Positions 1,421 through 35,950 of a DNA stretch of 56,372 nucleotides are shown here, one piece after another; position 1 is the stretch's first letter, and each line of letters begins with the position of its first letter. The notes beneath the pieces were generated by a model. The model saw only the letters and a program-made list of their open reading frames with translations. It searched no databases and had not been told where the DNA came from. This stretch comes from Pseudovirgaria hyperparasitica (Eukaryota), in assembly GCA_010093815.1 (NCBI GenBank), contig ML996573.1, one strand, 5' to 3'. The position numbers and the translations under genes are program-made.

Positions 1421-1549
1421 TAGCGATTTTTAAATGTAGTTAATACGGTAGGGCGCCTGGTTCGACTATGTTAGGCTTAGCGCTCGCTATTCCTCTATAT
1501 AATTTAGCACGCGATTAGATAAAGGTATATATATATACCTAGTATTAGT

Positions 1550-2900: not shown

Positions 2901-3045
2901 GTTAGTAGGTATATATCGGGCTTTCGACGGGCTTACACCTAACTTCTTCCGGTATACGCCTAGAATATCCGCCGTATGCCGTATTATTACCATCTACTAA
3001 TAATTATACTATGGTATTTTTCCTTTATAGTAACTATACCTCGAG

Positions 3046-6000
3046 ATGCCACGGGCCGTAGTCTCCTACTAATACTATAGTAGAAAGATTAGTAGTGTAT
3101 ACTATATAATCTATAGGCACTATAACTCGGAACTATATAGACGAGCACGGCTTGCCGTATTACTATTATTATTATAACTATTAGGCCCGTGGCTACTACT
3201 ATCGACCGGGTTATAGCGCGGCTTTAGTACTTATAGTTATATTAGTTAATGGAACTCTTTAGTTCGCTCTATTAGTGTTTAGCCGTCGAGCGTTAATTAG
3301 GAGTCCGAGTCTATAGAATTAGATACTTCTACTACTAATATTATCCTATATAAAGATACTACTATTTTCTCTAATCCTATTTCGGACCTAGAATCTATGG
3401 ACGGCGTTACTAGTAGCTATAGTACCGATTTAGTATGTTAGTCTAATATATATAGTAGAAATGCTATATCCATGGCGACGAGGGCGTCTAGTACTATATA
3501 TTTAACGAAAACGTTCGAAGAGGAGAGCGGTATATATATTATAGTAGACTAGAGTAGACGTGATAATCCGTCCGATATAAGTATATATAGTCTAGGTTTA
3601 TAGTAGTAACTAATTTAGTAGGCCCGATTCGGTTAATTCGATAGTAAGTTTATAGAGCGCCTTATAATATGGACGAATCGGTTTAGTATTTCGAATATAG
3701 TATATAATGAATTAACTACTATCCTTAAATAGACTTCCGCTATACCCCCCGACCTTTTTATACTAAAATCTAATATCATGCGTAAGTAGTTATTATACTA
3801 CCCTAAAGGGATACCGTACGAAAGTTGGTAGCGTAGCTACGATATATTCGGCACTACTATAGTCGAATACTAGTATAGGGATCCGCTTACGTTAGTGGAA
3901 TTCCTCCTTAGATACTAACCGTTCGCTAGTAAGCTCGTGTTTAAGCCGGTACGATAATTTACTAGTTTAGGCGACCGGGTATATAGTAAAGCCTATATAG
4001 TAGATGGTTAGTAGGATATGCACGCTACTATTCCGGATAGTACTATCGTCGTCTCTATTATTTTATCTTCGGATAAGACAAACCTTACTAACCATAGTAG
4101 TAATAGAGTAGTATAGCTAGTCTACCTATCTATTTATAATCTACCACTAAACGTCCGCTTATCTAGGAGTCTACTATTATTTCTACTACTTACTCTATTA
4201 CTAGTAGTTAAGCTAGAAACGGTAGCGAATCGCTTTATGTTCTATTAGGTTATAAGTAAAGTTCTAGCCTATATATCCGCCCATGATAGAGTCGTTAACT
4301 ATACTAATTATTATATAGCGTTATAGGCTATATAGAGTACTAGAGTATTAGTATTATATACTAATGGCGGCTCGCGTAAGTACTATCCGCGTTTAGCTTT
4401 ATATATTATAGATTTTCCGGAGTAGGTGCTTGTTACGGGTGTATCCTATCGGTATACATGTCTAATATATATAGTCCCTAGTAATAGACGATAGTATCTA
4501 TAAGAAGCTATTACTAGTGTATAGGAGTTCTATATATACTTATCGTTATAGGAATAGGTTTACCGTGTACGTCGCGAGTTAATAACTAATGGCCATGGTA
4601 GTAAGTATACTAGTGGTAAGATAGATAATGGGACGAGTATACCCGGTGTCTTATCGTTTTCGTCGACGTCTTTCGCGCTAGTAGTATAGGGCTATTATAT
4701 TCGCTAATCGGTTAAGAGTCGGTATTCTAGTAGGTGGATAGAGCTATTGGATAATTTCGCCTAGTTACTTACTAGAGTTAATATACACCGCGCGGTCGCT
4801 CCGGATATTCTACATTAACTATATAAGGGTATATTAGAATACACGTTTAATTAGATAGTCTTATATATTATTAATTAAGAGCGTACGGGATATAAGTTAA
4901 AGGGTGTATTTACCGGTATACCCCCTATAGAACGAGTAAAGAAGGTAATCGATAAGCGATTCGCGTCTATTGGGGTATTCGGTCGTTATAACCTACTTAC
5001 GTATATAACTTTAGTAATATAATAGACGGGGGCGATGTTTAAGCGTATGCTAGTAGTGTTTATAGTCGCGTTTAAACCGCTCCTATGTTATAATCGATAC
5101 TTCCTAAGCGTAGTACGGGCGGTTATTAATATATACATGTTAGCGGCGTACTATACGTATAATACATAGACACTAGTATACTTAGAAGAGGCTATATTAT
5201 ACTTAGACGACCTGAAATACTAGTTTATACTATATTATAGAGATAAATCGGAGGATAATCATTTTAACTTTCCGAAGTTCCATGTATTATCGCACCTGGT
5301 CGATGCTATTAAATACTATAGTTCGTTATATCTAATGTCGGTAGAGCTACTAGAGCGATCTTATATTATAGTAAAGAAATTATATCGAGGTTTAAATAAG
5401 AGAGAGACGTTTCTATAGTAGATACTAGTAGTAGATATACACACGATAAATACTAAAATCTCTAGTAGTATAGAGGTAGCGGCTAGTACTAGTATATTAG
5501 TAGCCTCTAGCCTAGAGTAGCTCGATAATACACGTAAGCTAGTCGGCCAGCGGTATATTCTAAAGGAGCCACGCTAGAGTAAACATATACTCTACGTCTT
5601 ATAGAGCTAGAGACTATCTACGTTCTACTAGACTACCGTTAGTGATCTCCACGACGTGTATAGTAGTAGTTTTATATTACTTAATACGGTTACACCCTTT
5701 ATACGTAACTATCGTAATCGGCTTATTAGGGATAATATATTAAAAGATACGAATATCGAACGTATTAAAAAGGACCCTTCATAGGCACGGGTCCTTCCTA
5801 TCTATATATATAAGACCATGTACGTGCCGATACGACTAGATAGAGATATATCTATAGAGGCCTTCAACCCGATTTAGATAAGATATACCCATAACTAGTA
5901 AAAGAGTAGTAAGGCTAGGGAGAATTATATAATAGTATAGGAGTTTAATAAGGGTAGTAACTACCTTAACGGGAAGCGGGTTAGTAAAGTCCGTATATTT

Positions 6001-6372
6001 CTAGAGGTATACGATATAGAGAGTATTAACGTAACTAGTAGTATAGCGGCGCGATTCCTAGGTGCGTTAGTTAAACTACTTAATAACTCGGGTGGAGGTA
6101 ATATCGACACCATTAGTAGCCTTATACCATTACGTATAGCGGGTTAAAGGTCTAGTAATAAGACTTATATAATGGATAGGTTCCGTGTCTACGAGCTAGA
6201 GTATATCCTACGCCCTATATAGATTATATTACGTTAGTTAGTTACGGATAGTTTATTCTAGTTAAACATGTATAGTAATTAGGGGATCTATAACGAGGTA
6301 TATAACCTAGACTTCTAGGCTATAAATAGACGAAACATAACCGTAGTATTAAAACACGGGCGCGTGTCGTAA
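3046..6372 (+). pseudogene. Plavaka-family transposase (~1108 codons) with a putative N-terminal C2H2-like finger
   Basis: Single frame from ATG 3046 to TAA 6370-6372. Reverted motifs YRDPL..VEFLL...PF..ELVF.P, RVYSEAHTADGWWDM, VVPIILSSDKTNLTNHSGD..AWPVYLSI.NL, DFPEQVL, FNFPKFHVLSH and C-terminal N.YSDW..YNEVYD are typical of Plavaka transposases. Confidence 0.9.
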
Positions 6373-6820
6373 GTCTATTACTATCTACCGCCGTCTACCG
6401 TAGTATGCCGGCATATGCCGGTATATAGCGGAAGTTATAGTTTATATATAGTAGCACTCGATAGTCATATCCTATACTAGGATATCTCTAAGGAATAATC
6501 GTAGTTTATTACAATCGGTTCTATAAAAGGCTTATATTTAATGACTATCTATAATTTTAGCTAAGGAGTATCTAGGGATATACCTTCTTATTATCTAATA
6601 ATTACTAGCTAGTATAAAAACTCCACGCCTCTAAAAGGGGTATATAGAACTTAAAGGATCCTCGTTTACGGGTAGAACTAGACATAGATAGTATTAACCT
6701 AATATAGATAGATTATATATATTAATACCCTAAAATCCGAACTATATCTCTAGGTCTACTAGATCTAGCTCGTACCCGATCCTAATGTTTTCGTTATTCG
6801 CGTTTATACCTTATTAGATA

Positions 6821-6948
6821 CCGGGTATATAACGAGTCTATGGTTAAGTAAGTATTAGGTACGTGACGAGTCTATTAATAAATAAGTGCCGGGTATATAA
6901 CGAGTCTATGTAAATAAGTATGAATAAGTATATACCGGGTATATAACG
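6821..6948. repeat. Three copies of CCGGGTATATAACG downstream of the transposase
   Basis: Copies begin near 6821, 6889 and 6935; the first two extend with AGTCTATG. Confidence 0.75.
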
Positions 6949-7771
6949 CTCTTACTAGGGAAACGTCTTCCTTAAGTATCTCCCCCTTCTAATATTTCTT
7001 CTTCTCTTCCTTTATTCTTTCCCTAGCCTTATAAGTATAGTTAGACTTATATTACTATATTATTAATATGTACGTTCTTGTATAGACCGTTAGAAACTAC
7101 GGTAACTAGATGTATATTCTTATAATAGATAAATATACCGTACTAATACGTCGCATTATTCGTGTTTAATATAAGAGTTTACTACTATAATTATTTGTTA
7201 TCACGCTCGTCTATCTCTTCTTAACGATAGTACTAATCGATAATAATCTATTATAGAGATAATAGTTAGTATTATATACTTCTCTTAAATATTCGCATGT
7301 TAATATCGCATAAGTATATACTTCGCGGAGGTCCTCTATCCTTCCCTTAAGCTACCTAGACTATCCCCTAATTACTAAAAACTCTTATATCTAACTATTT
7401 CCACTATTTATTCCTCGGTTCTACTCGTTAGGCTTTGAACGATAGCGAACTACGACGGGTTAGCGGTTATCTATATTTCGCGTACGCCGAGTTAGTATGC
7501 CTAAATATAATAGATAATAGTATGTTTATAATAATAATAATAATAATAATATTATATAACTAGGTAGAGTAGTACTCTACAGGCCTATGCCTTCTCTAGT
7601 CTAAGCCACTATGTAAGAAGAAACCCCATAGAGAAAAACTTCCTTATATCTATAACTATATCTCGTTAAACCTCTATTTTATCTTAAGTATATAGCTATA
7701 GGGTACGCCTATTAGCCTATAGCCTATATTACTATTATTTCGCCCTTAGGTAGTACGTATAGATACGGAGG

Positions 7772-7802
7772 TTATTAGTTAAGGGCTACCCTTAACTAAT
7801 AA
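7772..7802. repeat. 31-bp hairpin at the 3' end of the LINE
   Basis: ttattagttaaggg-cta-cccttaactaataa, a perfect 14-bp stem. Confidence 0.9.
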
Positions 7803-10800
7803 TCGGGGTTCTCCCGGGGTTCTTCCGGTATATATCGGGTTACTACCGGCGTATACCGGGTCTCTTCCGGTATATATTTCCGGGTCTACTAGTACTAGAG
7901 GAGTAGTAGATATATAAGTATCTATCGGGAGACGTCCTTAGGGTACTTATTAAGCTATTATATAATATCTAAAGTCTTTATAATATAGATAAGCTATTAC
8001 TATTATATATGGAGGTTAGGGTATATAGCTAGATAGTAGCGTATTATACCTCTCCGGCCGTACGCCTTATACTATAGGGAGGTATTAGAAACGCCTCTCT
8101 TATAGATATAGTATAGAAGTCCTATAGCGCCCGTTCGGGCTTAGATAAGTATAGATACTTAGGCTTTCGTTAGCCCTTTATACATCTATTTACTTAGTTT
8201 CTTCTATAGCCCTCGAATCTACTCTAGATATCTATTCTACTAGGAGATCTAGTAGGTATAGAGTGCCTCTTTCTACTTATCTTAAGTCCACGACCGCATG
8301 TTTTTTATAAGTTCTTAAAGGCTCTACTAGTCTAGAAGAGCGTCCGGGTTATCTCGGACTTCTTATACTACTTAGCTAGAGTCGGCTTCTATTAAGTACC
8401 TATACCGTATTCGATTCCGGCCTATATATAGAAGTACGCGGTAATATATACTAATTTATACACATAGCGCGGCGAAAGTATATTCTACGTTTTCTATACG
8501 TTCCTATACTTATTATTTAGTAAAGTATACTACTCTCTATATCTAGTAGAAGTTATATATACTTATAACGTCTATCTTACGTCGTAGTAGCACCGTATTA
8601 GTAGCTTTATATACGCCTAATATAAGACGGAGTATACGGTTCTATATAGATTCGAGCTTTATTCGCCTAGTCTATATAAGGGCCGTATACTAGTACTTAT
8701 GTCCGTACGTGAAGGCGGGTCGTACTATAGATATATATAGCTGGCGTGCCTTATCCCGGGCGGTTCCCTACGTGGAGACTATAATCTATTATATAGCGGC
8801 TTCTGCCTAGAGGGCCCTAGAGACGGTATATACCACTTATGGTCCCTATTTAAGCTTACTATCTAGTATAACTCCGAGCGCGTGTATACTTTATACTAGT
8901 AGTTCGTTAAATACGTCGATTCGGGGGCGTTATTTGTCTTCCCTAGTTACCTATTTCCCTTAACGGTTAATAAAGTATATAAGCTAGTATTTCTCTAGGG
9001 CGAACTTTACTCCGTGGCGTTTTACCTACTAGAGGCACCTCTTATAGTCCTATTCTAGTCGTCTATACGTTCGGTTAGTATTATTATTAATAGCTAGGAG
9101 GTATATGTTATCGGCGTATCCGACTACCTCTATATACTTTATTTCTTAAAGAAGGTCTACCGTAAAGAAGAGGAATAGAATCGGAGAGATAGTGCTCCCT
9201 TATGGGATACTATATACTATCTCTTTATATTCGCTCTAGTACCTAGGGATATATATCTAAGTTATTCTTCCTATAAGGAATAACTATATAAAGCGTGTAA
9301 TCTATTCTAGTATTCGTCTTATCCGGAGGTTATAAATAAGTCTTATATGGTTTATCTTATTAAACGCTCCGGCCATATCGAGGGAGAGAAGCAATACTAC
9401 CCATCCCTACTTCTATACAGCCTAGACGACTTCAATAATATATTAGATAGCTATTATTAGGGAGCTATCTATCTTTACCTTCTAGTTCGGAGGGAGGAGA
9501 TTATATTCCTATACCGTGGTGCTTATCTTCTTCGCTACCGTAGCCTCTAGTATCTTATCTAGGTAGAAGAGAAGGGCGATTAGTCTCTATCCCTTTAGGG
9601 AGTTAGGGCTCTTTCCTAGTTTCGGGAGTATAATAGTATAGGCGACTTAGAAGCTCTAGGGGTGGTACCCCTACGTGACGCATGCTTAGAATATACGAGT
9701 AATAAGTAGTAGGGTCGCTTTTATAGTACTTTTTAGGCATTAATTTAGAATTCTATCTAGTCTAGGTACTTTATCATTTAGGAGTATCTTAATAATATTA
9801 AGTATATCCTCCTCCGTAACTTCTTCGGGGATGTCTACTACGTATAGATATTCGGCGCCGTGAACGTCTAATAGGTCTACTAGTTCCGGGAGAGGGAACA
9901 TAGCCTCCTATAGGGCCTTAGTTTTCTTAAGGCTTATAGAGTATATTCTCCCCTAATGTATTAGGGGAGGCATGAGTAGCGGGGGTATCGGAGTATCTAC
10001 ACCCTTAGCCTATTTCGCTATACGCTATAGCCCTATTACGTATCGTGTCTATTAACTAGTAATTATATACTACTATTTACGCCTTTCGTTATGGAGGACT
10101 TTGTCGCGTTATTATATTACTTCCTTCTATTCTTTCTATAACTCGGGTATTCTCATACGGTATACGCGTGTGTATAGCCTTCGGGCGTCTTATATACTTT
10201 CCTATACTCGAGGAATCCCCTTTGCTTCCAGGGGCCGGTATATTCGGTATAGTACATGTTTATTTCTCGTATTCTAGTATATTTATAGGAGTATCTATAC
10301 GGCCTAGTCTATGGCTAGATTATTAGATATATTAACTATAGAGGGATCTAGAATCGCCGATTCCAGGTCCTTTAGGTACTTTTCCTAGTTAGTATTCTTC
10401 TATATCTATCGTCCCCGTTATTTATTCGGGGTATATATATTTATTACGGTTTCTATACATTTATAGTCGGAATCCGTCTATACCTAGCTTAGGCGGTAGT
10501 ATTAGATCTAGTAACTAATATACTCTATGGCGAAGGTAAGGTTAAGCGTGGACCCGTCTTCGTCCTATTTATGTTTTTTCTATATAACTTATTCTATAGA
10601 TATAAGTAGGTATAGGAAGTCGTGGTAGCGGGTACGTAGTTCCCTTACTCTAAGTTCTTCCCTTACTACGGCTAGGCCTCCCTACTATTAGTAGTAGAGG
10701 TTAAAGTCTCCTAGGAGGATGTGTTACCCTAGTTCCGTAGTACCCTTAAGCATCTCGTCTAGTATAAGTACACGTTATTAGTTATATATATTATATATAT

Positions 10801-11090
10801 ATAGGGGGCCTATATCTATTTATAGATGTAGTATTATCCTAAGGTTATCGCGCTCGGTATATAACTATAATAAGAGTAGTATTAATCTATGAATATAGAA
10901 GAGGACTCGTCTTTCTAGTCCTAGAGGGTGTATAGTATAGTATCCGGGGTATATGGTTGGTTTACTCGTCTAGTAGTGTTTATAGAGTTCCTAGATAGCG
11001 AGTATTATGGCCCCGGTCTCTTCGAGGAGCGTCGCCTAGTTCTCTCTTTTATATTATACGTTTACCTATATAATTTAGAGTATATTCTAG
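7790..11090 (-). pseudogene. LINE ORF2 (APE endonuclease and reverse transcriptase)
   Basis: Reverted motifs LQIMQANV..ILAIQEP (~11085-10985), HILLGDFN (~10700-10724), GIPQGSTISPILFL (~9170-9211) and VVGYADDTYLL (~9095-9128). Confidence 0.9.
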
Positions 11091-11099
11091 TCCCTTATT

Positions 11100-12512
11100 A
11101 GGTACTAGAGAGTATATATATCTATATACTTATTCCTTAGAGGCGCGACTATCCTCGCGCGGTAGCGGCTTTAACTATACCTTTTAGTCGTCCTATCGTC
11201 TTCGGGATAGTCTACTATCCCGCCTAACTATCTTCTAGAGGGGAGGTTAGGGGTATTATAAAGGAAGGGCCCGTAGTAGGTATTATATTCTATAACTATC
11301 TCGCGCCTCTCGCTTTTATCGTGCGAATATATTCTATAACCTATTTACGTTTTATGTACGTTAACGACCACGACGGGTGTTTCCCGTTATAGTTTAAATA
11401 CTATACTATATCTCTATTTCTTAGTCCGTCTCCTCGCGGTTTATAAGGGCACTCCTAGGTAGCGTAGTCCCTACGGCACTATCCGCACTTAGTCTTCTAT
11501 AAGTACCTTTATATAGTATATCTATACCCTTAATAGTTAAAGCACTATATTATTACCTATGCTCTATCCTATGGCTCGGCCATAAGGAGCTCTCCTTCTA
11601 CTAGGAATCCCTTCTATATAATGCGTTATACGAGGGCGGGGTCTCGGAGCTCTATAATTATAGTAGAGTGTTTTTTCGCCGTCGTCTTAATCGCCTATAG
11701 GTTCTTCTACCACGCTTTTATAATCTTAATCCCTAGGTATTTTCGCGTGTTAGATTATTCTATACGCGTAATATTCTCCGCTCCGATAGTCTATCCCTAT
11801 ATAGATACTATATATACTATAATCGGGTATATAGCTACCCTAATAGACGCGCCGGGGAAGATACTACCTATCGCGTTCGGATCTCGTAAGATGTTTTACT
11901 ACGTAGTATTTATTATAGTAGTAAGTACTACCCTACCTAGCGTAACTTTAGTAGCCACGACGCTTAACTATATTCCTTTCTATTCGTTAATCTTATTTAT
12001 AATTTCCTTTAGGGATACCTATTAGACCTACGCTAGTATATTCTTATCCTAGATTACGACACGTATACTATATACTCTATCTATGGTCCTAGTAGTCCTT
12101 AGTGCGGTAGCTCCGGGTATTACTATAATCTAAGCCTACGTGTTAGGGCGCTTACCTTAGAATAGCTCTTTCTAGATTCTCCGTAGGCTGGCTTCTATTC
12201 GGTTAAGTCTACTACTAGGTTCCTCTCGTGGCGACTTTCTTTCTTCCTCTATAATTCCTCTTAGGTTCCGGATAAGGTTCCGGAATATATAAAGAAGAGT
12301 CTTCTTTCCCTTCTCGGCGTCCCTCTCTATATATATTACCTAGTATTTAATTTTATCTAGGAGGGTCTCCCCTCTTGGGGTCCCCTCGGTCTAGGTTATC
12401 TATAGCGCTTCGCACCCTTAGTTAGTACCTATAATTTAGATAGGTGTCTAGCTATCTATATTAATGTCGCTATATAGCCGTTTCTACCGTACTAGTGGGG
12501 GTATATCCGGCA
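11100..12512 (-). pseudogene. LINE ORF1 (gag-like, zinc knuckles)
   Basis: ATG near 12512, a coiled-coil-like segment, and a C-x2-C-x3-H-x6-C-like knuckle (reverted C.NCNGKHPSWS.TC) at ~11357-11400. Confidence 0.75.
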
Positions 12513-12548
12513 TCTACCGGGGTATTATAATGCCTAAGGCCGCTATAG

Positions 12549-12579
12549 TTATTAGTTAAGGGTAGCCCTTAACTAATAA
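12549..12579. repeat. 31-bp hairpin in the LINE 5' UTR
   Basis: ttattagttaaggg-tag-cccttaactaataa. Confidence 0.9.
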
Positions 12580-15529
12580 AAGGGGGTCGGCGTGTCGGCG
12601 TTTATTAGATATAGTCTATACTCGTGTTATTAAAGAGTCTTCGAGTATATATATATAGTATCTCTATACGTCGGTATCGTCGCGTATTATACGCTATACG
12701 TATATACGTGTGTCGGAGGTTATTATACTTGGTATACTCTATCGTTTGATGTATATAAATCGCTGTTTTGCCCTGAATTGACCAGTTTGGTCCGTTAGGG
12801 TGTGAGAAGTTTTTTTTTAGCAAGTATATACCTATACTAATAGTATGTTTATAATAGTATATACTAGATCTTATAGTATTTCTCTTTAGCGGTAGATCCA
12901 CGTGGTCGTAAAGATAGTCTACTATTCTATCGTGCCTATATACTACGCTACTCTTTTATCGTATATAGACGGTATTACTAGAGTAGGGCCATCACCTAGT
13001 AAACTTAACGTTATATATAGAGTATTGTATATTTAACGTCGTTATTTTACGTGCTCTATGTTAGTACGGGATCGGATACCGGCTGTATATTTCCCCGCCT
13101 CTATTAAATTAACGAGTTATTACCAATAACTATACGGACTACTCGTGTTAATATAGCCGTAACGTACGTGTTATACCTACGCCTATTATATAGTATATAT
13201 ATCTTGTCTCTCTATTACCCTAGTAATATATACTATTCTCTATTCCGTCTACCTATGGCTATATCTAGCCAGCCGCGAATAAATAGCCGAGTAGAAGCGA
13301 GTCTCGATCTACTTTATATATTCAGAGCGTCCGACAGGTAGAAACTTCGGGTATATATAGAAGAGTTGATTTAGGAGGAATTTACTAGCCTATTACTAAA
13401 CCTACGTAGTAAGGAAGTAAAGGACCACTATATAAAACGAGAGTATTACCTATAGACGGTCACGGATAAATATATATTTATTAATAGTAGTTATACTATT
13501 TCACGGGTAGATACTATATATTAACTTAATACTATATTCTTAGTATTTACGCGTAACTGGCGGCGGTTAGCTAAATACTATTATATACGTTAAAACGATG
13601 CCCCGGGCTAGACGAGCTATCGTAATATTATATATACCCCACGAACCCGCCTAATATATCTAGCTAACCTAGTTATTTAACCGTCGGACTACTAGTATCT
13701 ATATCTCCTAAGGTAGCCGTGCCGCCGTGTTATATATATATATCTATAGTCCTTATCCGCGATCGTACTCGGGTTACCCTAGTACTAATAACGGCTATAT
13801 AGAATGGTATAACGCCGTTAAATGTTAAGGGTATAAAAATACGCGATATAGTAGGTCTTAGTATAAATAAACTATTAGAATTTATTAGCTTATCTATAGA
13901 TATACTAGGGGACGTAGACGGTTATAGGCATGGTCGCGTCTACCTAGAGTACCCGATTCTACCGAGCGAGTTAAGTAATATAATCCTTTATAAGGATAGT
14001 TTAGACTAGGTATTATAGTAGACTATTAAATAGGTACTAGGCTTAGGACTAGATCGGGTGGTTTTCCGCGTAGGCGATATAAACGGTATATTTAGAAGTC
14101 TACTATAACGTGTTAACTATAATCTAACTATATAGGAATGTCGCGCTATGAGTATAGTAGTAGGATTCATCCGTCTAGCGCGCGTAGGTAAGCTCGAGAT
14201 ATATATACGCCGATAGATATCGGTATATATTAATATATTACGACTACTAAGCGGTATATACTAATGTATGCTAGCATATCTAGTATATACCGGTATAATA
14301 CCGTCGCTCTTCCGTGGACATAACACCATTTATATATCTTAGGTTTTCGGTTATCGGTTATATATAGTGTTATATATACGGCGGATACCTTACTAGATTT
14401 AGGTCTTTCGTCGATAGTATATAGGTACGCCCTAGTCTACTTAATATAGGCGTAGTTAACGCTTCACCTACTTAAACGATGGACGTTAATAACGACGCGA
14501 CTAGTATATTTACCTATTATATTATTAGCTAGCTAACGTTATATTAGGAGAGTCGAGCGCCGCCGTTCTACCTACTCTACCCGTTAATATTAATATGCTA
14601 GTAATTATAACCTAATCGCCTTACGAATCGATATATAATGCTAGTACGCTCGAGAGTTCGAGCGAATATATAAAAGTCCGATATTATATACCATTTAGGG
14701 CCGGGGAGGAAGCGCCTACCGGCGTAGTAGTTATTAAGGCGATGGTAGAAGTCTATATATAACTAGATATACTAAGTCTACCTTCTTCTTATATAGTCCT
14801 ATTACTAGATAATGTTACCGGTTTTAATATTATAGGAGAGGAGTTTATAGATACGAACCTATGAATATCGGTATAATATCGGCTCGATAGTACGTATTAT
14901 AGCATAAGGGAAGTTATATTTAAGCGGTAGTTAGACACGTGCGCTAGTATACTAATGGACATATAGTATCTCTACTATAAATCGAATAGGTAAGGCATAG
15001 CTAGTAATATCTCACTACCTAGAAGAGATAGTTACTATAGAATTTAGGAGATAGACTCGGCGTCTATAGCGTTAGTATATCGGACGGTTAAACTTTTATG
15101 TAATACTATTTACTTATACCTATATTTATCTAAGCCCCGATTCGATAGCCTTCTATAACGTACTATATACTCGGTCGGCGAGCTACTAGACTCATATAAT
15201 AGTAGTATACTACCCCACTTTATATACTACTTAAGCTACTATTACTTTAGCCTACGTTAATCTTAGCTTTCTTTAGTTGTCCCTATATTATAAAAGAAAA
15301 CTTCTATAAACCTTTCCTCTACTTATCTTGGTTTTTAAACCTAAATCTTACCTTCTATACTTTATTCCGTGTTAATTACGACTATATACGAACGCTACGT
15401 CGAACTCGACTCTATTAACCCCTAAGGTCTATTCAATATAATAGTTAATGAGGTTATATTTATAGTTTATAATATAGATTAAGAACTCGTTATATTTAGC
15501 GATATTTAGGACCAGTCTACGCTCGACGT

Positions 15530-15860
15530 GATTAAGCCTTACGTTTAAGCCGAGTCTTACGTTTAAGTCGAGCCTTACGTTTAAGTTAAGCCTTATACTT
15601 AAGTCGAGCCTTACGTTTAAGCTAAGCCTTACGTTTAAGTCGAGCCTTATACTTAAGCCGATTCTTATGTTTAAGCCGAGCCTTACGCTTAAGCCGATCC
15701 TTACGTTTAAGCCGAGCCTTACGTTTAAGCCGATCCTCATATTTAAGTCGAGCCTTATATTTAAGCCGATCCTTATGTTTAAGCCGATCCTTATATTTAA
15801 GCTAAGCCTTACGTTTAAGCCGAGCCTTACGTTTAAGCCGAGCCTTACGCTTAAGTTAAA
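15530..15860 (+). repeat. 18-bp tandem repeat (~18 units) encoding approximately (VQAEPH)n in the helicase frame
   Basis: Unit ~gtttaagccgagccttac, i.e. RIP'd gtt caa gcc gag cct cac; in frame with the Walker A motif. Confidence 0.9.
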
Positions 15861-18800
15861 GCTTATAATACGACTACCGTCTCGACTAATAATAAACTAC
15901 TCGTCCTTAGTATACTTACTAGTAACTACCGTCCTAACGACGAGTATAAACTTAAGAAGGTCCAAAGTAGTAAGGCTCCCGTTCCTACTTACGCTACCTA
16001 TTAGATCTCTCTTATATAGGGCGATCTATAGTTAACCTTTAGGAATGTCTATGGTATTAGTAGAGAAATAGATGGACTTAAGTAGGAACAAGCGAAAACT
16101 CAAGCTAAGCTTAAGCTAGTAGTATTTAAGGCTTATAGTAAAGGTCATAGCTTCGAAGAGTCGATTAGTTATATATATAGATTCCTTGAATTCCCTAAGT
16201 ACCGCTCTTAGATTAAGTTATATACTCGCTTCCGATGGATTAACGAAGGGAAATTAGTATCCTTAATAAGCTTACTCCGCTTTAATCGTACTAATATCCT
16301 TCTATTATCTGACTACCCTACGGTATAGATCTTTAAGGTTAAGTAAGTAGACGACTTTATTAAGTATTTTTCTAAACTTCCTAATCTTATTATAAGCGAA
16401 GCGGATAAAGCTAATATACTATATATTAATACCGGCCTCTACGAAGACCCTCGCGACTTTTAGGTTATTAAACTTATAGCTAGCGAGCTTCTTAGTATAG
16501 ATTTTACTATCCCATTATATGTTAGACCCGATATAATATACGAACGAGTGAAGTAATTCTTTAAAGATCTAGGTACTTATACTATAGTTCGTATCTTGCT
16601 ACCGCTATATAACCCTATGGATCTTACCGGCTTTAATAATAAGCTTAAACTAGAGAGCGATCTAATTAATTCATAGTATATAGGAGTTACTACTCCCTAT
16701 ATATAATACAGTATAATAAGTAGGCCGGACACTTAGCCCTAGATCTCTATTCCCTACCGCGAGTCATTCGATAAGAAATTTAACTATCTAATATATATTA
16801 CTATGAGTACCTTATAAGACGAATAGGCGGATCTTCTATTATCCTAATTCTAAGACGTTACTATCGGGTATATCTAGCTCTTAGGTGTTACTCGGGTGCT
16901 CTTAGCTATCGTCTATCCTATCGATGCGAAAGGATTCTATCGCATAGAACTAGGTAGTTATGGGTACCTTAAAGTAGATTTAAAGGATTATAATAACGAC
17001 GTATACCGCTTTAAAGTCCTTTAATTTCGCCTAGGCGTCCTTCTATTCGAATGCCTCGCTCTAAAAGTCTTTAATAAGGTTAGGCGTCCTTCTAAAGCAC
17101 CTAAGGTACCGATTATATTAATAGATACGGTTACTAATGTAACTTAAGCTCGTCCTAAACATTTTATTCGGACTAGCGATACTAGTTTAAGTACGATTAG
17201 GTCGTCTCTTACTACGCTCATAGGGTTCACGGACGTTCTAGCTTTAGTTAGTGTATAAACCTATAATAAGCTTACTAAGTAACGCATTAATACGTGCTAG
17301 AAACTAATCTACCACGCCGTGTAAGCTCCTAGAGACGACGGCGTAGACGACCACGCCGCTTAGGATGCGTTTAATGCGATGGTCCCTAATGTTATCGTAG
17401 ACTCGGTGTCTATATCTCTAATGTATAGGTCCCCTAACCCTAACGACGAGATTCTAGATTATAGTATAGAGCCTTAGGATACCCTTATTACTCTTTCTAA
17501 ATTATCTATATCCCTAGATAATAATAAGGACATGAATATAGAATATAGTCACGATGTTATTAGCGACGAAGGTTCTATTACTAGCCCCGTCGCCGATATA
17601 TATACACTTCTAATATTATCTAAAGTCTACTCTAGTGTTCTATCCCCTTTACTACCCTCCGTATAGGACCTAATACTTAGTAATAACTACCTGAATCTTT
17701 AACCCGTCGACTATAACCGCTACGTTAAAGATTATAAAAGATTCCACGATCTCTAGAATATTATACGTTTAGAACTATCTCCCTAATACTAGTATATCTA
17801 TATATAGGCGACGGACGTACTTAGAGCTTAGTTTCTACTTCACGGCTATGGAGGAGCTAGGAAGAGCCATTTATGGCTTCGTCTACTACTGGCTATACTT
17901 CTAATTAACGAAATAAACGGTACTTCTATTATCGCTTATACTACTAAGGTAGTTATCCTATCTAGTGATGTAATAGCGCACCTCCCTACGCTAGGTTCTA
18001 CCTAAATATATAGGATATATATATATATTATTATCGGTCTAACTAACGAAACCTACAACAACGCTATAAGAAAAGCATATAAATATATAAGTAATATATT
18101 TACTCGCTATAAGTCTCTAAAGATACTAGTCGTTCTTCGAAGATACCTCGAAGCCGTTAATCGAGAGGTTTTCTTTACTATAGCTAGACTATCTCGTTAC
18201 GGCGACCCTCTTATCGGGCCAACCTAGAACGATATAATAGGCGGTACTATCCTCGCGTAAGCCTAGGCCGACTATAGTAAACGACCATCGGAATATAGTA
18301 CGGATCCCCGTGCTCGTCTATAGAAACTATATACCGGTTACGTTACGCTCGAGGTTGTTAGACTCATTAAATCTCGATACTAATATAAATAGATCCCTAA
18401 GAATTTCGAGAAAGAAACGGCTTAGCTATTACGCGCTATCTATAAATATTATACTTATAATAAGGATATGTCTAAGGAGGAGTATAATAGGATGAACGAG
18501 CTATACCTCGCTACCTAGGATCTAGTTACTATCCACGCCTAGATTCATGTAGAGACCCTATATATTATAAACATCGCTAAGGTAGCCCGTAATATATATC
18601 CGATTTTGGTCGTAATAGAAGAGGCTACGTATATCCTTAAAAGTAATACACTCGGGATTATCGTTAATTATACTACTATAGAATGGTAACCGACATTTAT
18701 TTACGTTGGCGACCCACGCTAGCTCGATACCTACTAGCGTAATAGTACTAATATATAGGCCGTAAACTAGAGGATCTCCTTTATAAAGCGCTAGATATAA

Positions 18801-19856
18801 TATAGTTTCCCGACTACTCGCCTTACCGAGTTAGAACGCTTAGTTCCTAGAATAATAAACGTTATATTACTAATTACTTACTTGGGTAAGCTAACGACCT
18901 CGCCCCGTATAATAAATGATATCGATATACTACTCGCAGAGACCGTTTAATAAATATTTGGAATCCGTGGCTATTAATATATTATATACGCTAATGTTAA
19001 CGGGGATCACGCGTACACGGTGAATAACTTAATATATAACATAGACTTATTACGTTTTACTTAGTGGATTATTACCGAGCTCTTCCGTCATAGCGTCGTA
19101 CTCGATCGCGTGCTCTATATTTCTATATATACCGCCTAACGTAATCTGTTTAAAGGGATAGTTAGGAACTCGCTTCTAACTATACTTGCCGTAGCGGATA
19201 AAGCTCGATTTAATGCCCTACCTAAGCCGGTATAGAAGCTTGTCTAATGGCGTTCATAGGACGGTTCTTAGGGTTATAATAATAATATAGTCCTTATTAA
19301 CCCGGTCTAAACCAATCGCTTCGGCTTCCTCTCGGAAGTAAACCGTAACGTCGTTACTATTACGCGCGCTAAATAGATAATAGTTATTATCGCTAACTTC
19401 GTATCTCTTAAGAGGTAGAAAGTCCTAGACGGTATACTCGGCGAGATATAGAACAAGTGCTCTAAGATTCATGCGATATACACGTGCACGACCCCCGATC
19501 TAGATGGCCTCCCTCTACTCTCTAACATGTCTAATCCCTAATATGGTCGCCCTATACTTAGTATTAGAGAGAGGGGAGAATAAAGCGATTAATAAACTAC
19601 CGATGGTACTAAGCCCCGTAAGCTACTAGTCTACTATAAATGTAATATTAAAGGATATAAGTCTATTAAGTATCTAAGAGGGTCGACGCTTATATATAAT
19701 AACTATTAGGACATCAGCTATAAAGCTAATGTTTACCCTAAACCTAAGACGCTTACGGGTACGTTTTACTATAATTATAGAACTACCAATTATACTTAGC
19801 GTTATTATTCTAGCCGTACTAAATTACTAGCACGTATAAATAGTAATAATCTAGTT

Positions 19857-19940
19857 AATACTACTAGAGCTAATACTACTAGAGCTAATACTACTAGAAC
19901 TAATACTACTAGAACTAATACTACTAGAGCTAATACTACT
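19857..19940 (+). repeat. 15-bp tandem repeat (~5.5 units) in the helicase C-terminal tail
   Basis: taatactactaga(g/a)c repeated. Confidence 0.9.
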
Positions 19941-21339
19941 AACGAAGTAACTACTAGCGGCTAGGACGATAGAGACTACGAGGATGCTAACTAAGACGGC
20001 GGTTTTACGATATATAAAGACATGGAAGTCAATTGGTAATAGTATACGATTAGACTCACGTGTTAGGGCTACTTAGTCACGGCTTCTTAGTAAGTATACC
20101 TCTATATCTATTTTAGATATAGTTACGATATTCTACTAGGTAGATAGTTTAGCTCTATTAAAGACCTATTAAGGGTATTTCTATTACGTCTACTCTAGTA
20201 TAGACGCGCTATTAGATAATACGGCGCCACTAGACACGTTAACTAGTACCCACCGATTAAGAAATAAACATGATTCTATATCTACCACGAGCCCCGGCCT
20301 AATAACGTAGGCTTCCTTTAGTTATCCCCTTTATACTTTTAAAACTACTTCTAGCCTTTATATCGGGAGATATTACTATCTAAAGAGAAAATATAAAAAA
20401 ATATACGCCCTAATCAAAGCCTCTATCTTTAGACTTTAACTATAATATATACGGGATATAGTAAACCTAAATATCGCGTACTTTAAAAGCATGGAAGAAT
20501 ATAATACTCGAATATAACGAAATATAGGCTCACGATACTCGGAGAGTACCTAGGGATAAGCATATGAATATAAAATGGGATAAGACTAACGCGGCACCTC
20601 GTATATGCGTAGCTATATACCGTTCTAGACGTAGTCGCCTACGATATAACATTGCGAGATAAGAATCATGGCTATCCAATTCTATTAAGGGTATTAGACG
20701 ATATAAAGTGAATAATTATACGCCCGACCACGCTACGCTAAGTTACGTGTATGTTATAAACGCGTGTTCGAGGAATAATAAGGATATAAACGAGGTTCAC
20801 CTAGTAGGTACCTCGTTATTCCGGCTTCTACCTCTATCGTCCGACCTATACCTCCGTCTTCCTCGCGCCTATAATATACTACACGTATACTATATAATTA
20901 GTCCGTAAATTATAAACACTATATTAACTATACACGTTAACTATATACGATTAATATATCGAATCCGATTCTATAATAAAGTAACCGTCCGAATATAGTA
21001 ATTACTATAGTACTACTTCGTATCTTAAGCCTAGATATATAAGTAAAGCGTAAAGCTATAGAGGCGCGTATAAGGTAGCTATATATAGAAGTATATATGG
21101 CTACTCTACTCGTAGACCATGGGTGTTGAACTAAGAACGAGCTCGGCGTAAAAAGAGCACGTGAGATTATTAATAAGGTAGCGGGCGAATTCCTAGTAGT
21201 ATAGGAAAGAGTAGTAGAGTATATAGAGATAAAGGCGCTATACTATATCTACGACTAGGTATATACTATAGTATAGAAAACCATATATTATAGAAAAACT
21301 ATCTCCGAGTGTAAGAAGAGGCGTGTAATTATAGCCCTA

Positions 21340-21460
21340 TATTCTACGATCTTATAATCCCTACCTATCACGACCTTATAACCTCCGCCTATCGCGACCT
21401 TATAACCCCTACCTATCACGACCTTATAGCTCTCGTATACTACGACCTTATAGCCTATAC
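21340..21460 (+). repeat. 24-bp degenerate tandem repeat (~5 units) inside an unidentified cargo ORF remnant
   Basis: Unit ~ctacctatcacgaccttataaccc. Confidence 0.75.
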
Positions 21461-22949
21461 TCGTAGCGGTCCCATAGTCTACTAACGTATATACTATAAG
21501 AAAAATTAAATTTATAATTAGATTTAACGATAACGTATTCCTCAAAATACTAGTACCTACGTCTAACTAGTAGAAAGACCATAGCGACGCTTCGTGTATT
21601 AATTTAGTAGTATTTATACGGCGAATTAGAATCTAATACGTAATAAAGACTAGGAGGGCACTTGACTAGAGCCGTACTACCATGCATTCTATTATACTAG
21701 TAGTTAAGTATACGATAAGTAAAACGGAACTAGAGGTAGATATTAGATAGCTCCTATAGTTAGTAATCGAATGTATTCTAGAATATAGTAATAGTATAAT
21801 ACTTCTCGGCCTTAGATAGGATATAGATGGTATACCCGAAGTAAAATAAAATATAAACCAGCGACTAACACATGATAGTATAGACGGCTATATATAGGTT
21901 ACGCTCGAATAAATCCGTCCCTCCGTCCCTAATACTATACTCGCTATGATTAGTATAATAATAGTAATAGAAAGCTACCGTCTATGACGGTAGAGATACC
22001 TACGGAGATAGTATTATAGGTAGTAGATAGTATTACCTAAACGACTTAACCCTTCCTCTAGCGATACTATATATACTACTATCGGTACCCGGGAAGTTAT
22101 AAGACCAATCTATAAGCTCTAAAGATAGTAACTTCGAAAGCCTTAAAAGTACCTTAGATATAGAGGATATGGATATCGCTTTTAAAGACTAATAGAATAA
22201 TAAAAAGGGTGCTAGAGGTAGTAAGAGTAGCGTGTGTACTTGGCTAAGGCGATACGATCCGACGTAAGACGGCTTCTATCTACTATATATTAGTATATGC
22301 CCGATTCTACTAGCTATATAACTATAGCGTATATATTTAGTTAAGACGTTATAATACCGGTATAAGCCGGCGTCTACCTAGTTCACGTCGGGATACGCCC
22401 GGTCCTACTAGCTATATTATTACTACGACTATAATTATATAAGATCTACTCTAATAATTAAATATTTACTTATATACTTTACTTCCTCCGTACTTATTGA
22501 AATTATATTATAATCGCTAAACGCGGTGACTTAACTTCTACCGCCTAAATCTAGTTTTCATATCTTGTCGCCATTAACGCCGTCTTACTACCTATGGCCT
22601 AAGTCGCATATAGGAATAGATAGGTATAACGAGAGTTACGACTATCCTAGTTTAACTACCGGCCATAGAATGGCTAACCGTGACACGTATATACGACGTG
22701 CGGAGGCCTTAAGCGTTAGCGCCCTCCTACCTTATATCTAGTATCTCTAAGGTCTATATCTAATACCCGAAACAAGTCATGATATATATAGGGCTACTAT
22801 TATTAAGATAGTAAGTAAAGAAGTAGTAATAGAGCTTAAAACTAGTAGTATAGATACTACTATACTCTATAGAATAGTTAAGGAAACCGTTACTAGAGAA
22901 TTCAATTAGTATATCGCGGCTATAAATAGTAAGTTAGTACCGATGGTTA

Positions 22950-25900
22950 CGACCATAGATATAACAGAGGCTAAACTAGATATAGATACTATAGGCATAG
23001 GTACGTAGACATAGTTACCGCTAGAATATAAGAAGAAAGATAATATAGAAGATGCTAAAATGGAAGACGACGTAGCTAGTATACTTAGACATATATATAT
23101 ATATACGGTCCTAGATACTAATATTAGAGTAGTATCGAAGATAGGTGCGGCTATAACCACCGACATAGATAATCTACCTATGAATGTCGTCGTGCCTAGC
23201 GAAGCTTATCTACGCGTAAACATACTAGCCATAGAGATATAGTTATAGTTACCGCCGGAATATACGGAGAAAGAGAATGTAGAAGATACTAAAATGGAAG
23301 ACGACGTAGCTAGTATACTTAGACACATATATATATATATAGTCCTAGATACTAATATTAGAGTAGTATCGAAGATAGGTACGGCTATAACTACCGACAT
23401 AGATAATCTATCTATGAATGTCGTCGTGTCTAGCGAAGCTTATCCACGCGTAAACATACTAGCTATAGAGATATAGTTATAGTTACCGCCGGAATATATA
23501 GAGAAAGAGAACGTGGAAGATACTAAAATAGAAGACGACGTAGCTAGTATACTTAGATACATATATATATATATAGTCCTAGATACTAACATTAGAGTAG
23601 TATCGAAGATAGGTGCGCCTATAATTACCGATATAGATAATTCCCCCACGAATGCCGTCGTGCCTCTAGATACCGGCGAGACTTATCTATAGCTACTAGA
23701 AATAAAGAGAATACTCTCGGATAATATAGTAAACCTAGTCGATTCTCCGAAACGCCTAAAACTAGAATATATTATACTACTAGATGTCGACCGGTAGACA
23801 CGTGAAAACCAGGAACTATTCGGGTTAGTAGATAATTTATATAGTAGATATATATTAGATAGTACATTAGCGAACGACCTTAACTTTAAAATTCTTTCTA
23901 TAGACGACGACTCTAATAGAGACGAAGTAAAGCTAGATATAGAGGACTTAATTCCGGTAGATAATAATGTTAGTACGAAACTATAGAAAGCGTAAGTTAT
24001 ACTAAGAAGTAAGTAGGAATATACACTACTATACTAATATACCTATAGAATATTCGCCGTTAATAACTCTAATAAAGTAGTCTAAGCTATCTCTTATTAT
24101 ACGGAAGAGATGCGGTTACTTACTATAAGTATATTTAGGCTTACGCTAGACAACCTAATAAAGGAGTTCGGCTATATACCTACTCTATATCTAGCCTTTA
24201 GTATAAGTAGGTTATATAGGCCATGGGCCAGCTAGTTACTCGCGGTAGTTACTATATTTAAGTAGTAGGCGGGTCCGTAGAAGTGCTAGATCTTAGTAGA
24301 TAGTCTAGGGCTAGGGAAGATAATCGTGCTTATAACGTTCATCCGCCTCGCGTTTTATTAGGACTTTCTACGCGATAATATAGAACTTAATCTAGGAAAT
24401 TATCTATAACCGACTTAAGACTCGGGCATAGATAGAAAGTGCCCGATATAATCTCTATATCCGATTAAATGTCCGTGTAGCTAGACCGATAATTTCGTCC
24501 ATGTGCCCCGCCTTTAAGGACTATTTATACTATACTACCTAAGGTCCCTTCTAATAGCGCATTGGCCGTAGCGCTTTAAATAGATGTATAATAATACGGA
24601 TAGTATATTTACCGATTAAATCGATAAACGGAACCTAATAAAGATAATAGTACGGCTAACGTACTCGAAAACCCTTACTAACGCCCCTAGTATCCGATAA
24701 TTCTCGTATATAGACCGATAATACTTAGCTAAGAGATACCTACACCCCGAATGGGAACATAGCGTTAATATTAGTAATACTACTAAATTCGAGACCGACG
24801 AGGAGTATATCGTTAGAGCATGGTCGATTCCCGTTAATAGAACCGCTACTACCGAATTTCCGTCGCGATACACGAAGAACTATATAATCTATAGCACCGT
24901 CTAGAGTATAGAACCCTAATATCTTAAATCTTTTAAGGGACGCGTGGTTATAAGAGTAAAGAGGGCGAAACAATTTAGTACTAAAAATACTTAAACTCGT
25001 GAAGTAGCATTCCTTAGTATATTAATAGTAGACAAGTTCTATTCCGTAAAGAACCCCGATATAAAATAGTATAAATATACGATATATAATACCCTTATAT
25101 TTAGTATATAGGTTAGTGTAACGCCCCTCTCGAATAGTCTAGTAGATATTCTAGCGGCTATCGAGGTAGGTGCTCTAGATAAGTTACCTAACTACGTTAA
25201 CGATAATACTACTAAAAGGGTATTTAAGAGCCTATAGAATAAAACTATAAGAAAGATTATTATAACGTGGTCGAATAAACTCCTTAGTTTAATAAAAGGT
25301 AAGTCGGCGGACACGATGGCCGCGATAGTCCGTAGGGCATTAGAAACCATAGAAGGTAAGCGTATACTACGTATGGTAGCCGATTAGTATTTACTATTCA
25401 TCCTATAACGGGGACTACTAACTAAATAGTTTAATGGAGAGGTATATCTATCTACGATATTAAAGCTAGTAGTAGAGTTTATATCTATCCCGGCTATAGA
25501 ACTAGAGAAGATAATCATATAGTTATATAAGAATAGAGGTAGATAGTTTAATAATCTATAGCCTAACGGAACGCCGCGGGACTCGTAGATATAATCTACC
25601 GCCTAGAGTAAATCGAAAGGGGGTACCGGGTCCGGGCTTAACGTATACTACTATTAGGCTAGACTAGCTACTACGTGTATACTACTTATATACCTTACTA
25701 ATAAAAAGATAGAAGACGAGTAAATTAATATTACGCTTACGCGTCGGAGGGATAGTAATAATAGTATACTAAGTAAGATAATCACTAATCCCGTATGCGA
25801 AGCGCTTCTATAGCTAGATAAGGCCATGCGAAAGAAGATAGTATCGCTAGCTAATAAACACGCTTTAAAGGTAAACTAGATCCGTAACTTCATTAATAAT

Positions 25901-26520
25901 AACGTTTATAATGAAAGTACTAGACGCGCGCGATAAACATCCGCCAACTACCCGGAGAAAATCGTACTCGTATATACCGTACCGGTAAGCTTAATATTCC
26001 TATACTTAGTAAGTGTTTACACTACCTACTAGTAACGTAATTCACTAATATATATAGGTACTACGTCCATATATATAAGCGAAAATATTAGTATATTTAC
26101 TAGCCAGCCTAAGTACGTCCGAATTAAATAAGGTATATAGATTATTTAGATCGACTAAGTCGGATTCTCCGTGTATTCTACTAGTATTAGCTTCGTAGGT
26201 CTACGAAGGATAAGACCTAATAGTCGCTGGTTTTATAGTGTTAGTAGACTAATACTTACGTAAGGAGACGTGGCCGTAGGTAAGTATAAGATATTATCGC
26301 CATAGATAATATCGGCCTATAGTATATGCGTATACTTTAATTTTAGACTATTTAGAGGTTAAGGCTAGACTCGCCGCGTTAGGTAAGGTAATCGAAAGCA
26401 CGAGGATATAAGCCTTAGACCTAGGAAAAGAAGATATAGCTACGGTAGAGATAGCTATATCTAATATACTAGTAATAGGCGTACGCTTTAATCCCATAGA
26501 GATATAGTAGTATAGAAGTA
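22950..26520 (+). pseudogene. SNF2/SWI2-family ATPase with N-terminal 78-aa repeats
   Basis: Same-frame reverted motifs ILAD.PGLGKTI (24290), P.SLL..HW, LIVDEFHSVKN (25022-25054) and SATPLSNSL. After a probable intron (gtaagt at ~26009) comes QAS.RCHRHGQ.RP.VYAY.L (~26278-26340). Ends approximate. Confidence 0.82.
22990..23665 (+). repeat. 234-bp tandem repeat, ~3 copies
   Basis: at(g/a)gaagacgacgtagctagtatacttaga at 23060, 23294 and 23528. Confidence 0.95.
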
Positions 26521-26649
26521 AGTAAGGTAGTTAGTTAATTAGCTTCTAAGAGACTAGATAGCATGGTAGTATAAATACAAACCGCTGTTTACTCGTGATT
26601 ATATATCTATATATATCTATACGTGAAGAGAAATAAGATATTTATTCTA

Positions 26650-26970
26650 TACCGTTATATAGTAGGACGTTACTATATATGCCGGCATATAATAGAATAT
26701 TCCGACATGCGCCGGTATATTATAGGATATTTCTAGATACTTAAAGTATAGTCGTAGTATAAAGTAGTATTACTATTATATACCGGTATATAGTAGAACG
26801 TTACTATATATGCCGGTATATAACGGGATCATGTTCCGATATACTATATGCCGCTAGTATATTATAGAATATTCCTAGATACTTAAAGTATAGTTATAAT
26901 ATAAAGTAGTATTACTATACTATACCGGTATTTAGTAGAACGTTACTATATATACCGGTATATAATAGGA
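26650..26970. repeat. Right subterminal tandem repeat (131-142 bp period, ~2.3 copies)
   Basis: acgttactatatat(g/a)ccgg at 26667, 26798 and 26940. Confidence 0.85.
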
Positions 26971-27004
26971 TTAAACGTTTTCTTAACGTTCGATAGAACG
27001 ATTC

Positions 27005-27180
27005 TAAAAGAACTAGGACGGCTCTAGAAGAACTAGGACGACTCCGGGAGGACTAGGACGACTCTAGGAGGATTAGAATAACTCTAGAAGTACCGGGACG
27101 ACTCTAGGAGGATTGGGACAACTCTAGAAGTACCGGGACCCATTTGGGATAACTTTAGAAGTACCGGGAGACCTAGAAGC
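27005..27180. repeat. Right subterminal ~20-bp tandem repeats next to the TIR
   Basis: Variants of actctaggaggactaggacg and actctagaagtaccgggacg. Confidence 0.85.
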
Positions 27181-27181
27181 A

Positions 27182-27208
27182 TTGGGAGCGCCGTATCTTT
27201 CCTAATGG
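27182..27208 (-). repeat. Right terminal inverted repeat
   Basis: ttgggagcgccgtatctttcctaatgg. Confidence 0.9.
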
Positions 27209-34644: not shown

Positions 34645-34822
34645 CTAGATAGATAAAGAAAGAGAGAACTAGAGAGTCTTAGGCTCTTATAAGAATAACT
34701 AGTACTTTAGCGCCTTGGCATTCTATATATAGGGACCTAAGTTTACTATGTAACGTATACCTTACCTACTGTGAATGGGACACGATATCACATCCGACCT
34801 TTTGTACTGTTATGTAGCAGCC

Positions 34823-35950
34823 ATGATTACGTCGAAGCGGGTTGCTCTTGTTGTAGTTGCCATTCTTACGATACTTTTCTTCCTCCATAGCTTACGATCC
34901 TCCTCACCTCAGCATTCACCCTCCGATCAATTGCCTAAGTTTGTAACATCAACCCGGAGCTCAGCTTCACAACTCAAGGAAGACTTACGTGCCTCCATGG
35001 TAGAAGCGTCTCGATTTGCAACAGGGAAGGGTAGTGCGGCAGAGTCGCTCAAGTTATCTTCTCTTCAGAATCCTTTGAAGGGGCTTGGCACGAGGTCGCT
35101 CCGTGAACAGCTTGAATATCAATTTCCATACGATCCGCAATCTAACTTCCCGGCATACATTTGGCAGACATGGAAGCACGACCCGTCGGAGGTGTCCTTC
35201 GAGGAAGAATTCAGAGAGAACGAAATTAGCTGGACCCAATTGCACCCAGGCTTCGTACACGAGGTCATAACGGATGATATCGCGGTGCACTTGTTGCGCC
35301 ATCTGTATGCATCCTTGCCAGATGTATTGGCTGCCTATCATGCCCTGCCACTCCCAATACTCAAGGCTGACTTCTTCCGGTACCTAATTCTACTTGCACG
35401 CGGCGGTATCTACTCTGACATTGATACTGCTGCGCTCAAGCCTGCGACGGACTGGGTTCCTGCTAAGATTCCAAGAGATTCCTTCGGTATGATCATAGGT
35501 ATCGAGGCCGACCCGGATCGAGACGATTGGGCGGATTGGTACTCCCGGAGAATACAATTTTGTCAATGGACGATACAATCAAAGCCTGGTCATCCTATAC
35601 TTCGTGATGTCGTAGCCAACATTACGGAAGAGACTCTTCTTCGCAGAGATCGAGGCCGGCTCTCCAGAGACCACAGAGGCATAGTCGACTTCACTGGCCC
35701 TGCGCTATGGACTGATATCATCTTCAAGTACTTCAACAATCCGAGCGTTTTCGATATGAGCACGAGCCAGGGCAGCGTAACGTGGCAACATTTCACGAGG
35801 ATTACGAGCGCAAAGAAAGTTGGCGACGTAATCGTGCTACCCATTACGAGCTTCTCGCCTGGTGTAAAACAAATGGGTGCCGGAGAAGATGACGATGATA
35901 TGGCATTCGTTAAGCATCACTTCGAAGGCACTGTTACCCTAAGGGATTAG
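34823..35950 (+). CDS. OCH1: Initiation-specific alpha-1,6-mannosyltransferase (GT32); native C-terminus replaced by LTR-encoded VTLRD*
   Basis: N-terminal signal anchor, then FPYDPQSNFPAYIWQTWK, ADFFRYLILLARGGIYSDIDT (DxD), IGIEADPDRDDWADWYSRRIQFCQWTIQSKPGHP and VLPITSFSPGV...FVKHHFEG. No RIP signature. An upstream in-frame ATG at 34775 is possible. Confidence 0.92.
   Translation: MITSKRVALVVVAILTILFFLHSLRSSSPQHSPSDQLPKFVTSTRSSASQLKEDLRASMVEASRFATGKGSAAESLKLSSLQNPLKGLGTRSLREQLEYQFPYDPQSNFPAYIWQTWKHDPSEVSFEEEFRENEISWTQLHPGFVHEVITDDIAVHLLRHLYASLPDVLAAYHALPLPILKADFFRYLILLARGGIYSDIDTAALKPATDWVPAKIPRDSFGMIIGIEADPDRDDWADWYSRRIQFCQWTIQSKPGHPILRDVVANITEETLLRRDRGRLSRDHRGIVDFTGPALWTDIIFKYFNNPSVFDMSTSQGSVTWQHFTRITSAKKVGDVIVLPITSFSPGVKQMGAGEDDDDMAFVKHHFEGTVTLRD

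Follow-up and report, generated by a model that had tools for sequence, protein, structure and literature searches.

A giant DNA transposon repeated in the genome of Pseudovirgaria hyperparasitica carries, as its last gene, a highly divergent SNF2-family ATPase gene that contains introns and has been inactivated by RIP. The gene recurs as a standard part of a ~22-kb PlavakaB family, which spread in the host fungus in two waves, B and A. The copy described here lies in a stretch of 56,372 nucleotides (hereafter the window) that is part of contig ML996573.1 of a 35-Mb genome (assembly GCA_010093815.1), and positions are given in this window throughout.

The transposon extends over 413-27207 (+), about 22 kb once a nested insert is subtracted, as delimited by copies of 92-94% identity that are colinear with 413-7536 and 12838-27207; its true left end lies leftward of 413 and was read in other copies only. 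The element is bounded by 26-bp inverted repeats, of which the right one was located at 27182-27207 (+) by comparison of termini, so that the SNF2 gene occupies the terminal cargo position that had been proposed for it; subterminal repeats with units of ~120-140 bp and 20 bp were detected by repeat analysis at 26579-27170 (no strand assigned). Where free of mutation, the ends read CATCA and TGATG, the former being unmutated in one copy and the latter in another, while the remaining copies display RIP-type variants. All six copies with both ends read, the window copy not among them, are flanked by a 2-bp target site duplication (TA in four, AA and TT in the others). A transposase pseudogene at 3553-6477 (+), defined by its frame extent, one relative and a PF18759 match at 3856-4485 (E 9.4e-24), completes the combination of Plavaka transposase, CATCA..TGATG termini and 2-bp duplication that is the signature of PlavakaB in the accessible part of its description (PMC12730594). 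An Upf1-like SF1 helicase pseudogene is found at 15801-20036 (+) from its frame extent and an AAA_12 (PF13087) match at ~18816-19397 (E 4.4e-8), and both neighbours attributed to the SNF2 gene from the sequence alone are therefore supported. The helicase frame reaches ~1400 codons, far beyond the AAA_12 match, and contains, near 19640, what may be a zinc knuckle, with 15-bp repeats lying further on at 19856-19941; an 18-bp unit repeated ~18 times at 15535-15855, just 5' of this frame or inside it, differs in length among copies. Low-stop frames at 725-2728 and 13000-15260 in a RIP-aware reading suggest additional cargo genes. The nested insert is a 5.3-kb retroelement foreign to the transposon (7537-12837, -), missing at the same site in other copies and recognised by an RVT_1 match (E 5.6e-14); endonuclease-like motifs noticed by eye suggest a LINE, and relatives of it are also present inside other Plavaka copies.

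The SNF2 core yielded 32 matches in the genome, corresponding to at least 25 loci, so the gene is not a one-off capture confined to this copy, an outcome that the sequence-only reading had put forward as evidence against its view. Co-occurrence with Plavaka genes was verified by hand pairing: of the 24 main transposase hits, 18 are followed downstream, on their own strand, by an SNF2 core at a distance of 14-43 kb, three others are no further than 21 kb from a contig end, two are accompanied by nothing but opposite-strand or rearranged pieces, and one is without a core hit.

The composite RIP index is ~1.2-2.0 across the region, except in two flanking gene islands without such a signal. These islands, free of mutation amid the repeats (34775-35950 and 53833-54971), correspond to a DXD glycosyltransferase and a protein kinase. 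In the alignment of the SNF2 region from 18 copies, C/T or G/A differences make up 857 of 892 variable columns, and 535 of the 539 in-frame stops counted in 13 copies are TAA or TAG, with 37-47 stops per copy in 802 codons. All 13 counted copies are RIP-killed, no intact copy of the gene was found among those examined, and the window copy, with 44 stops in 802 codons, has no open frame. From this we infer that the host fungus is RIP-active. Amplification after RIP was rejected, as shared stops fit saturation, given that the retained CpA is concentrated in a few copies. A second sample filed under the same species name reached no more than 4 and 2 of 30 bins and was given no evidential use. RIP generates transitions only; transversions were therefore used to compare copies.

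The pseudogene was delimited at 21971-26507 (+), with an uncertain start, from the positions of its motifs, an ordered motif score and the extent of its frame. It had been placed within 22950-26520, but the low-stop frame runs from ~21971 and the gene hence begins upstream of 22950, with candidate start positions between ~21971 and 22670, including ATG codons at 22169 and 22670. A 1-nt insertion at 22264, shared by the four B copies aligned there and a fifth one, argues that part of the 21971-22670 stretch is non-coding. Three 234-bp direct repeats are present at 22967-23668 (+), as the sequence-only reading had it, but their interpretation as 78-aa units was not confirmed, and their number is specific to this copy, ranging from 2 to ~7 units in the 19 arrays measured, several of which are irregularly spaced. 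Comparison of the units indicates that each is most likely composed of a 180-nt exon, encoding 60 aa that appear by eye acidic and rich in Pro, Thr and Ser, and a predicted 54-nt intron. These introns are placed on the plus strand at 23079-23132 and 23313-23366 from splice signals and indel pattern, and at 23547-23600 by homology with the complete units. A GTATAC or GTATGC donor, an RCTAAY branch site and a TAG acceptor occur in 47 of 47 regular-length units drawn from many copies, the intron piece varies from 52 to 58 nt and the exon piece measures 180 nt in 46 of 47; moreover a 2-nt shortening common to several B copies, which would shift the frame if translated, falls inside the intron piece. 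The splice signals, the length pattern and this shortening together make a coding unit of 60 aa the most likely one, and the 78-aa reading was rejected on the signals found in all 47 units and the near-constant 180-nt exon. Two further introns are predicted on the same strand, one of 57 nt at 23992-24048 (copy alignment, splice signals) and one of 49 nt at 26009-26057 (frame, splice signals) that shifts the genomic frame ahead of motifs V and VI. An intron between these two motifs was rejected, the downstream frame being continuous through V, VI and the tail.

On the order and spacing of its motifs, the encoded protein very probably belongs to the SNF2 family. The N-terminal ATPase lobe (24287-25150, +), delimited by motifs, profile-profile alignment and ordered score, contains motifs I (24293), II (25028) and III (25115), as well as a motif Ia (24653) assigned by eye and outside the scored blocks; the C-terminal lobe (25955-26330, +), delimited by motifs and ordered score, begins with motif IV (25955) and continues 3' of the 49-nt intron with motifs V (26205) and VI (26277-26309). 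The sharing of a frame between the repeats and motifs I, II and III, already proposed, was confirmed and extends to motif IV, and motif VI does follow a probable intron. In an ordered-motif test based on SNF2 profiles alone, with seven blocks all derived from 17 host SNF2 proteins and allowed spacings set after the sequence had been seen, the unaltered window copy reached 21.8 bits (mean -49.7 and maximum -24.5 for 150 shuffles) and its RIP-aware reading 22.8 bits (maxima of -31.1 for shuffles and -32.8 for 42 control frame pieces), that is ~9 SD over shuffles, the C-lobe blocks being individually near or below zero. A host-derived SNF2 HMM scored no more than 6.1 bits, its alignment falling on motifs I and II-III, a score exceeding those of 200 shuffles. 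A profile-profile comparison (hhalign) with SNF2 proteins aligned motifs II-III only, its E-value of 6e-4 speaking for membership and its probability being just 28%. In the RIP-aware reading, subfamilies A and B alike have DEFH as motif II and the two arginines of motif VI at canonical spacing, and the glutamines flanking motif VI are reconstructed at positions occupied by stops in the actual copies.

Failure of an HMM search had been named beforehand as an argument against SNF2 identity, and Pfam is indeed blank: neither PF00176 nor PF00271 exceeds its curated cut-off in six frames of the gene. This lowers the probability of SNF2 membership without excluding it, and the likely cause is RIP damage combined with divergence. 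Likewise, a PDB search with the gene profile gave no match, and no homologue was retrieved by a word-indexed search or by a full HMMER search of 1.84 billion representatives, blanks that may also be due to RIP damage. That the gene encodes another SF2 helicase, or that its motifs arose by chance, would agree with these empty searches, with the low hhalign probability and with an AlphaFold model of mean pLDDT 29, itself uninformative; the score ~9 SD over shuffles and the SNF2-type spelling and spacing of the motifs make it highly improbable.

The 17 host SNF2 ATPases (PF00176/PF00271) have motifs I, II, III, IV, V and VI in the same order and spelling, but the transposon protein is only 23-34% identical to them in the motif blocks (23-34 of 100 columns for each host protein) and no accessory domain was recognised in it. 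Its motifs I and II are 246 aa apart, compared with 104-145 aa in the host proteins, and a Cys/His-rich stretch in this long insertion (24430-24480), present in both subfamilies, is a possible metal site. The phylogenetic placement that had been called for was attempted on the 100 motif columns: the protein forms a long branch outside all host proteins, joined only with another long branch (support 82). The tree provides no subfamily assignment, and no domain diagnostic of ISWI, CHD, Rad5/16, Mot1, ATRX or other subfamilies was detected with Pfam.

The copies fall into two subfamilies. Subfamily A includes 18 loci that differ from each other by 0.0-0.4% transversions and are near-identical apart from RIP, and subfamily B six loci with 0.4-0.9% transversions; the two are ~6% apart at 152 diagnostic sites, and one further locus has pieces of both. 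Their backbones are near-identical, with 31 transversions in 16480 bases (0.19%, the backbone being covered by three B copies only) and none in the tested parts of the transposase and helicase, and they carry two versions of the right arm from near 22170. In the gene, transversions amount to 212 of 3606 (5.9%), beginning at 22175, and the 3' end has 9 in 692 sites; the A/B-divergent stretch is accordingly placed at 22175-26475 (+). A few B-type transversions were also observed in one short patch (~24915-24940) of two or three A-type copies, possibly by gene conversion. The two arms are most simply explained by one crossover at about 22170 with a sister lineage, which would have put the SNF2 arm of that lineage onto the transposon backbone, and the pattern suggests an SNF2 arm that was swapped and has evolved quickly.

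Within this arm, purifying selection is absent overall. First and second codon positions differ at 6.1% (141/2328) and fourfold sites at 3.7% (14/375; p 0.07, or 0.10 when counted from 22670), an excess that by itself lacks significance. Replacement-type transversions (125/1998) exceed those of a neutral pool including introns (16/480, p 0.011) or introns together with upstream DNA (40/975, p 0.017), a signal that varies with the choice of sites pooled as neutral, residual RIP blurring the codon classes. Positive selection on the gene is thus suggested rather than established. If the gene were a captured passenger evolving under relaxed constraint and of no benefit to the element, the like rates of divergence at replacement and silent sites would be expected, and homologue searches found no donor or relative for it. 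Against this, the five exon indels between A and B located 3' of the repeats are all multiples of three, the surroundings of motifs Q-I and V-VI are spared (5 transversions in 292 sites, versus 212 in 3606 gene-wide) and splice signals are kept in both alleles, which makes a passenger improbable; no such sparing is seen in the windows of motifs II-III and IV (12/141 and 6/69). From these patterns of change, the protein was presumably functional during the divergence, with a constrained core and a surface changing at least at the rate of neutral DNA.

SNF2 ATPases translocate along double-stranded DNA and shift protein-DNA contacts. The product of the transposon gene would be such an ATP-driven translocase serving its element: it would move or strip nucleosomes or other bound proteins off the element's own DNA, which, once cleared, would be accessible to transcription and to the transposase, and the variable acidic 60-aa repeats could be a disordered tether. 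We regard action on the element's own chromatin as an evenly balanced proposition, since the gene is a fixed member of the transposon, its catalytic motifs are intact and no host-type reader domain accompanies them. Chromatin remodelling, or a toolkit formed with the helicase as earlier envisaged, may describe this role. A motor of the Mot1/Rad54 type could also assist transposition itself, unrelated to silencing, by clearing target DNA or dismantling the transpososome, since these subfamilies clear DNA and take complexes apart. The stability of the gene in the element and the lack of any visible host-type histone-reader domain would suit this role, which is nevertheless doubtful, as quick surface change is unexpected in the partner of a transposase with no A-B transversion and the Plavaka families covered by the literature consulted are described as lacking such a gene.

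The SNF2 protein and the Upf1-like helicase might instead have acted as competitors or decoys against a host defence such as SAD-6/ATRX-dependent RIP or meiotic silencing, the new allele enabling a younger wave. According to the accessible parts of the reports, the Neurospora SNF2 protein SAD-6 is involved in meiotic silencing and one RIP pathway and works in host defence, as does the helicase-like SAD-3 (PMC5555490; 10.64898/2026.08.11.744009); SAD-6/ATRX is likewise an SNF2 ATPase tied to repeats and mobile DNA, but it is a host defence gene. The excess of replacement-type transversions over pooled neutral sites (p 0.011-0.017) and the lower divergence among A copies than within B would both agree with such a counter-defence. 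It is nonetheless rather unlikely: all copies examined are RIP-mutated, so any protection failed, the selection signal hinges on how neutral sites are pooled, and the protein is no closer to one of the 17 host SNF2 proteins than to another, no SAD-6 orthologue having been recognised for this comparison. Remodelling of the element's own chromatin remains our preferred reading.

A second repeated element of about 16-17 kb (at least 16 kb) is present in five copies, each no further than 25 kb from a contig end. It harbours a divergent RIP-damaged SNF2 gene, for which PF00176 exceeds its cut-off in two of the five copies, a Macro domain (E 9.6e-8) and motifs that we take, by eye, to be RecQ-like. 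No DNA similarity to Plavaka was detected and a homologue search of this element found none. Kinship between its SNF2 protein and that of Plavaka was rejected, with 24 of 100 motif columns shared and only motif I aligning.

SNF2 cargo on a Plavaka is absent from the literature searched (Plavaka, transposon-borne SNF2, silencing), the original Plavaka description by Iyer et al., which could mention it, aside. None of 13 metagenome Plavaka loci has an SNF2 gene, a comparison of little power as only three exceed 10 kb and all are distant, and neither a first metagenome scan nor a viral scan revealed Plavaka-SNF2 co-occurrence. PlavakaB was described from Agaricomycotina (mushrooms), with TET/JBP cargo or none, in the accessible part of Kojima 2025 (PMC12730594), where the term SNF2 has no occurrence in the text and one text supplement. 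The element analysed here has the same CATCA..TGATG ends, 2-bp duplication and PF18759 transposase and differs by its ~22-kb size, its RIP-active host and its SNF2 and Upf1-like cargo. It resembles the giant red-algal Plavakas of 17-19 kb in having fixed accessory genes, which in the latter are the set PAG1-3, thought to be DNA- or chromatin-modifying; the red-algal cargo consists, unlike here, of a methylase/SET and a ParB/2OG-oxygenase protein, helicase and SNF2 being unmentioned in the accessible part of that report (10.1101/2025.02.11.637652). VANC of VANDAL transposons offers a functional analogy as a transposon-encoded accessory factor against silencing, but, as far as the accessible text goes, it belongs to plant elements, is not an ATPase and has a demonstrated function, the one proposed here being deduced from sequence (PMC10398659).

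A broader scenario, which we put forward tentatively and hold to be unlikely, is that the giant Plavakas of ascomycetes possess their own SNF2 lineage, a module under positive selection that can be exchanged and that counters SNF2-dependent genome defence (RIP or meiotic silencing), that the allele swap led to a new burst of transposition, and that other, unrelated mobile elements of fungi, the second element among them, recruited SNF2 motors independently. Accessory genes are rare on DNA transposons and those described in Plavakas code for modifying enzymes; an SNF2 motor carried by a transposon would represent a new class of accessory factor, and the two-allele pattern marks the SNF2 gene as the sole fast-changing part of its element.
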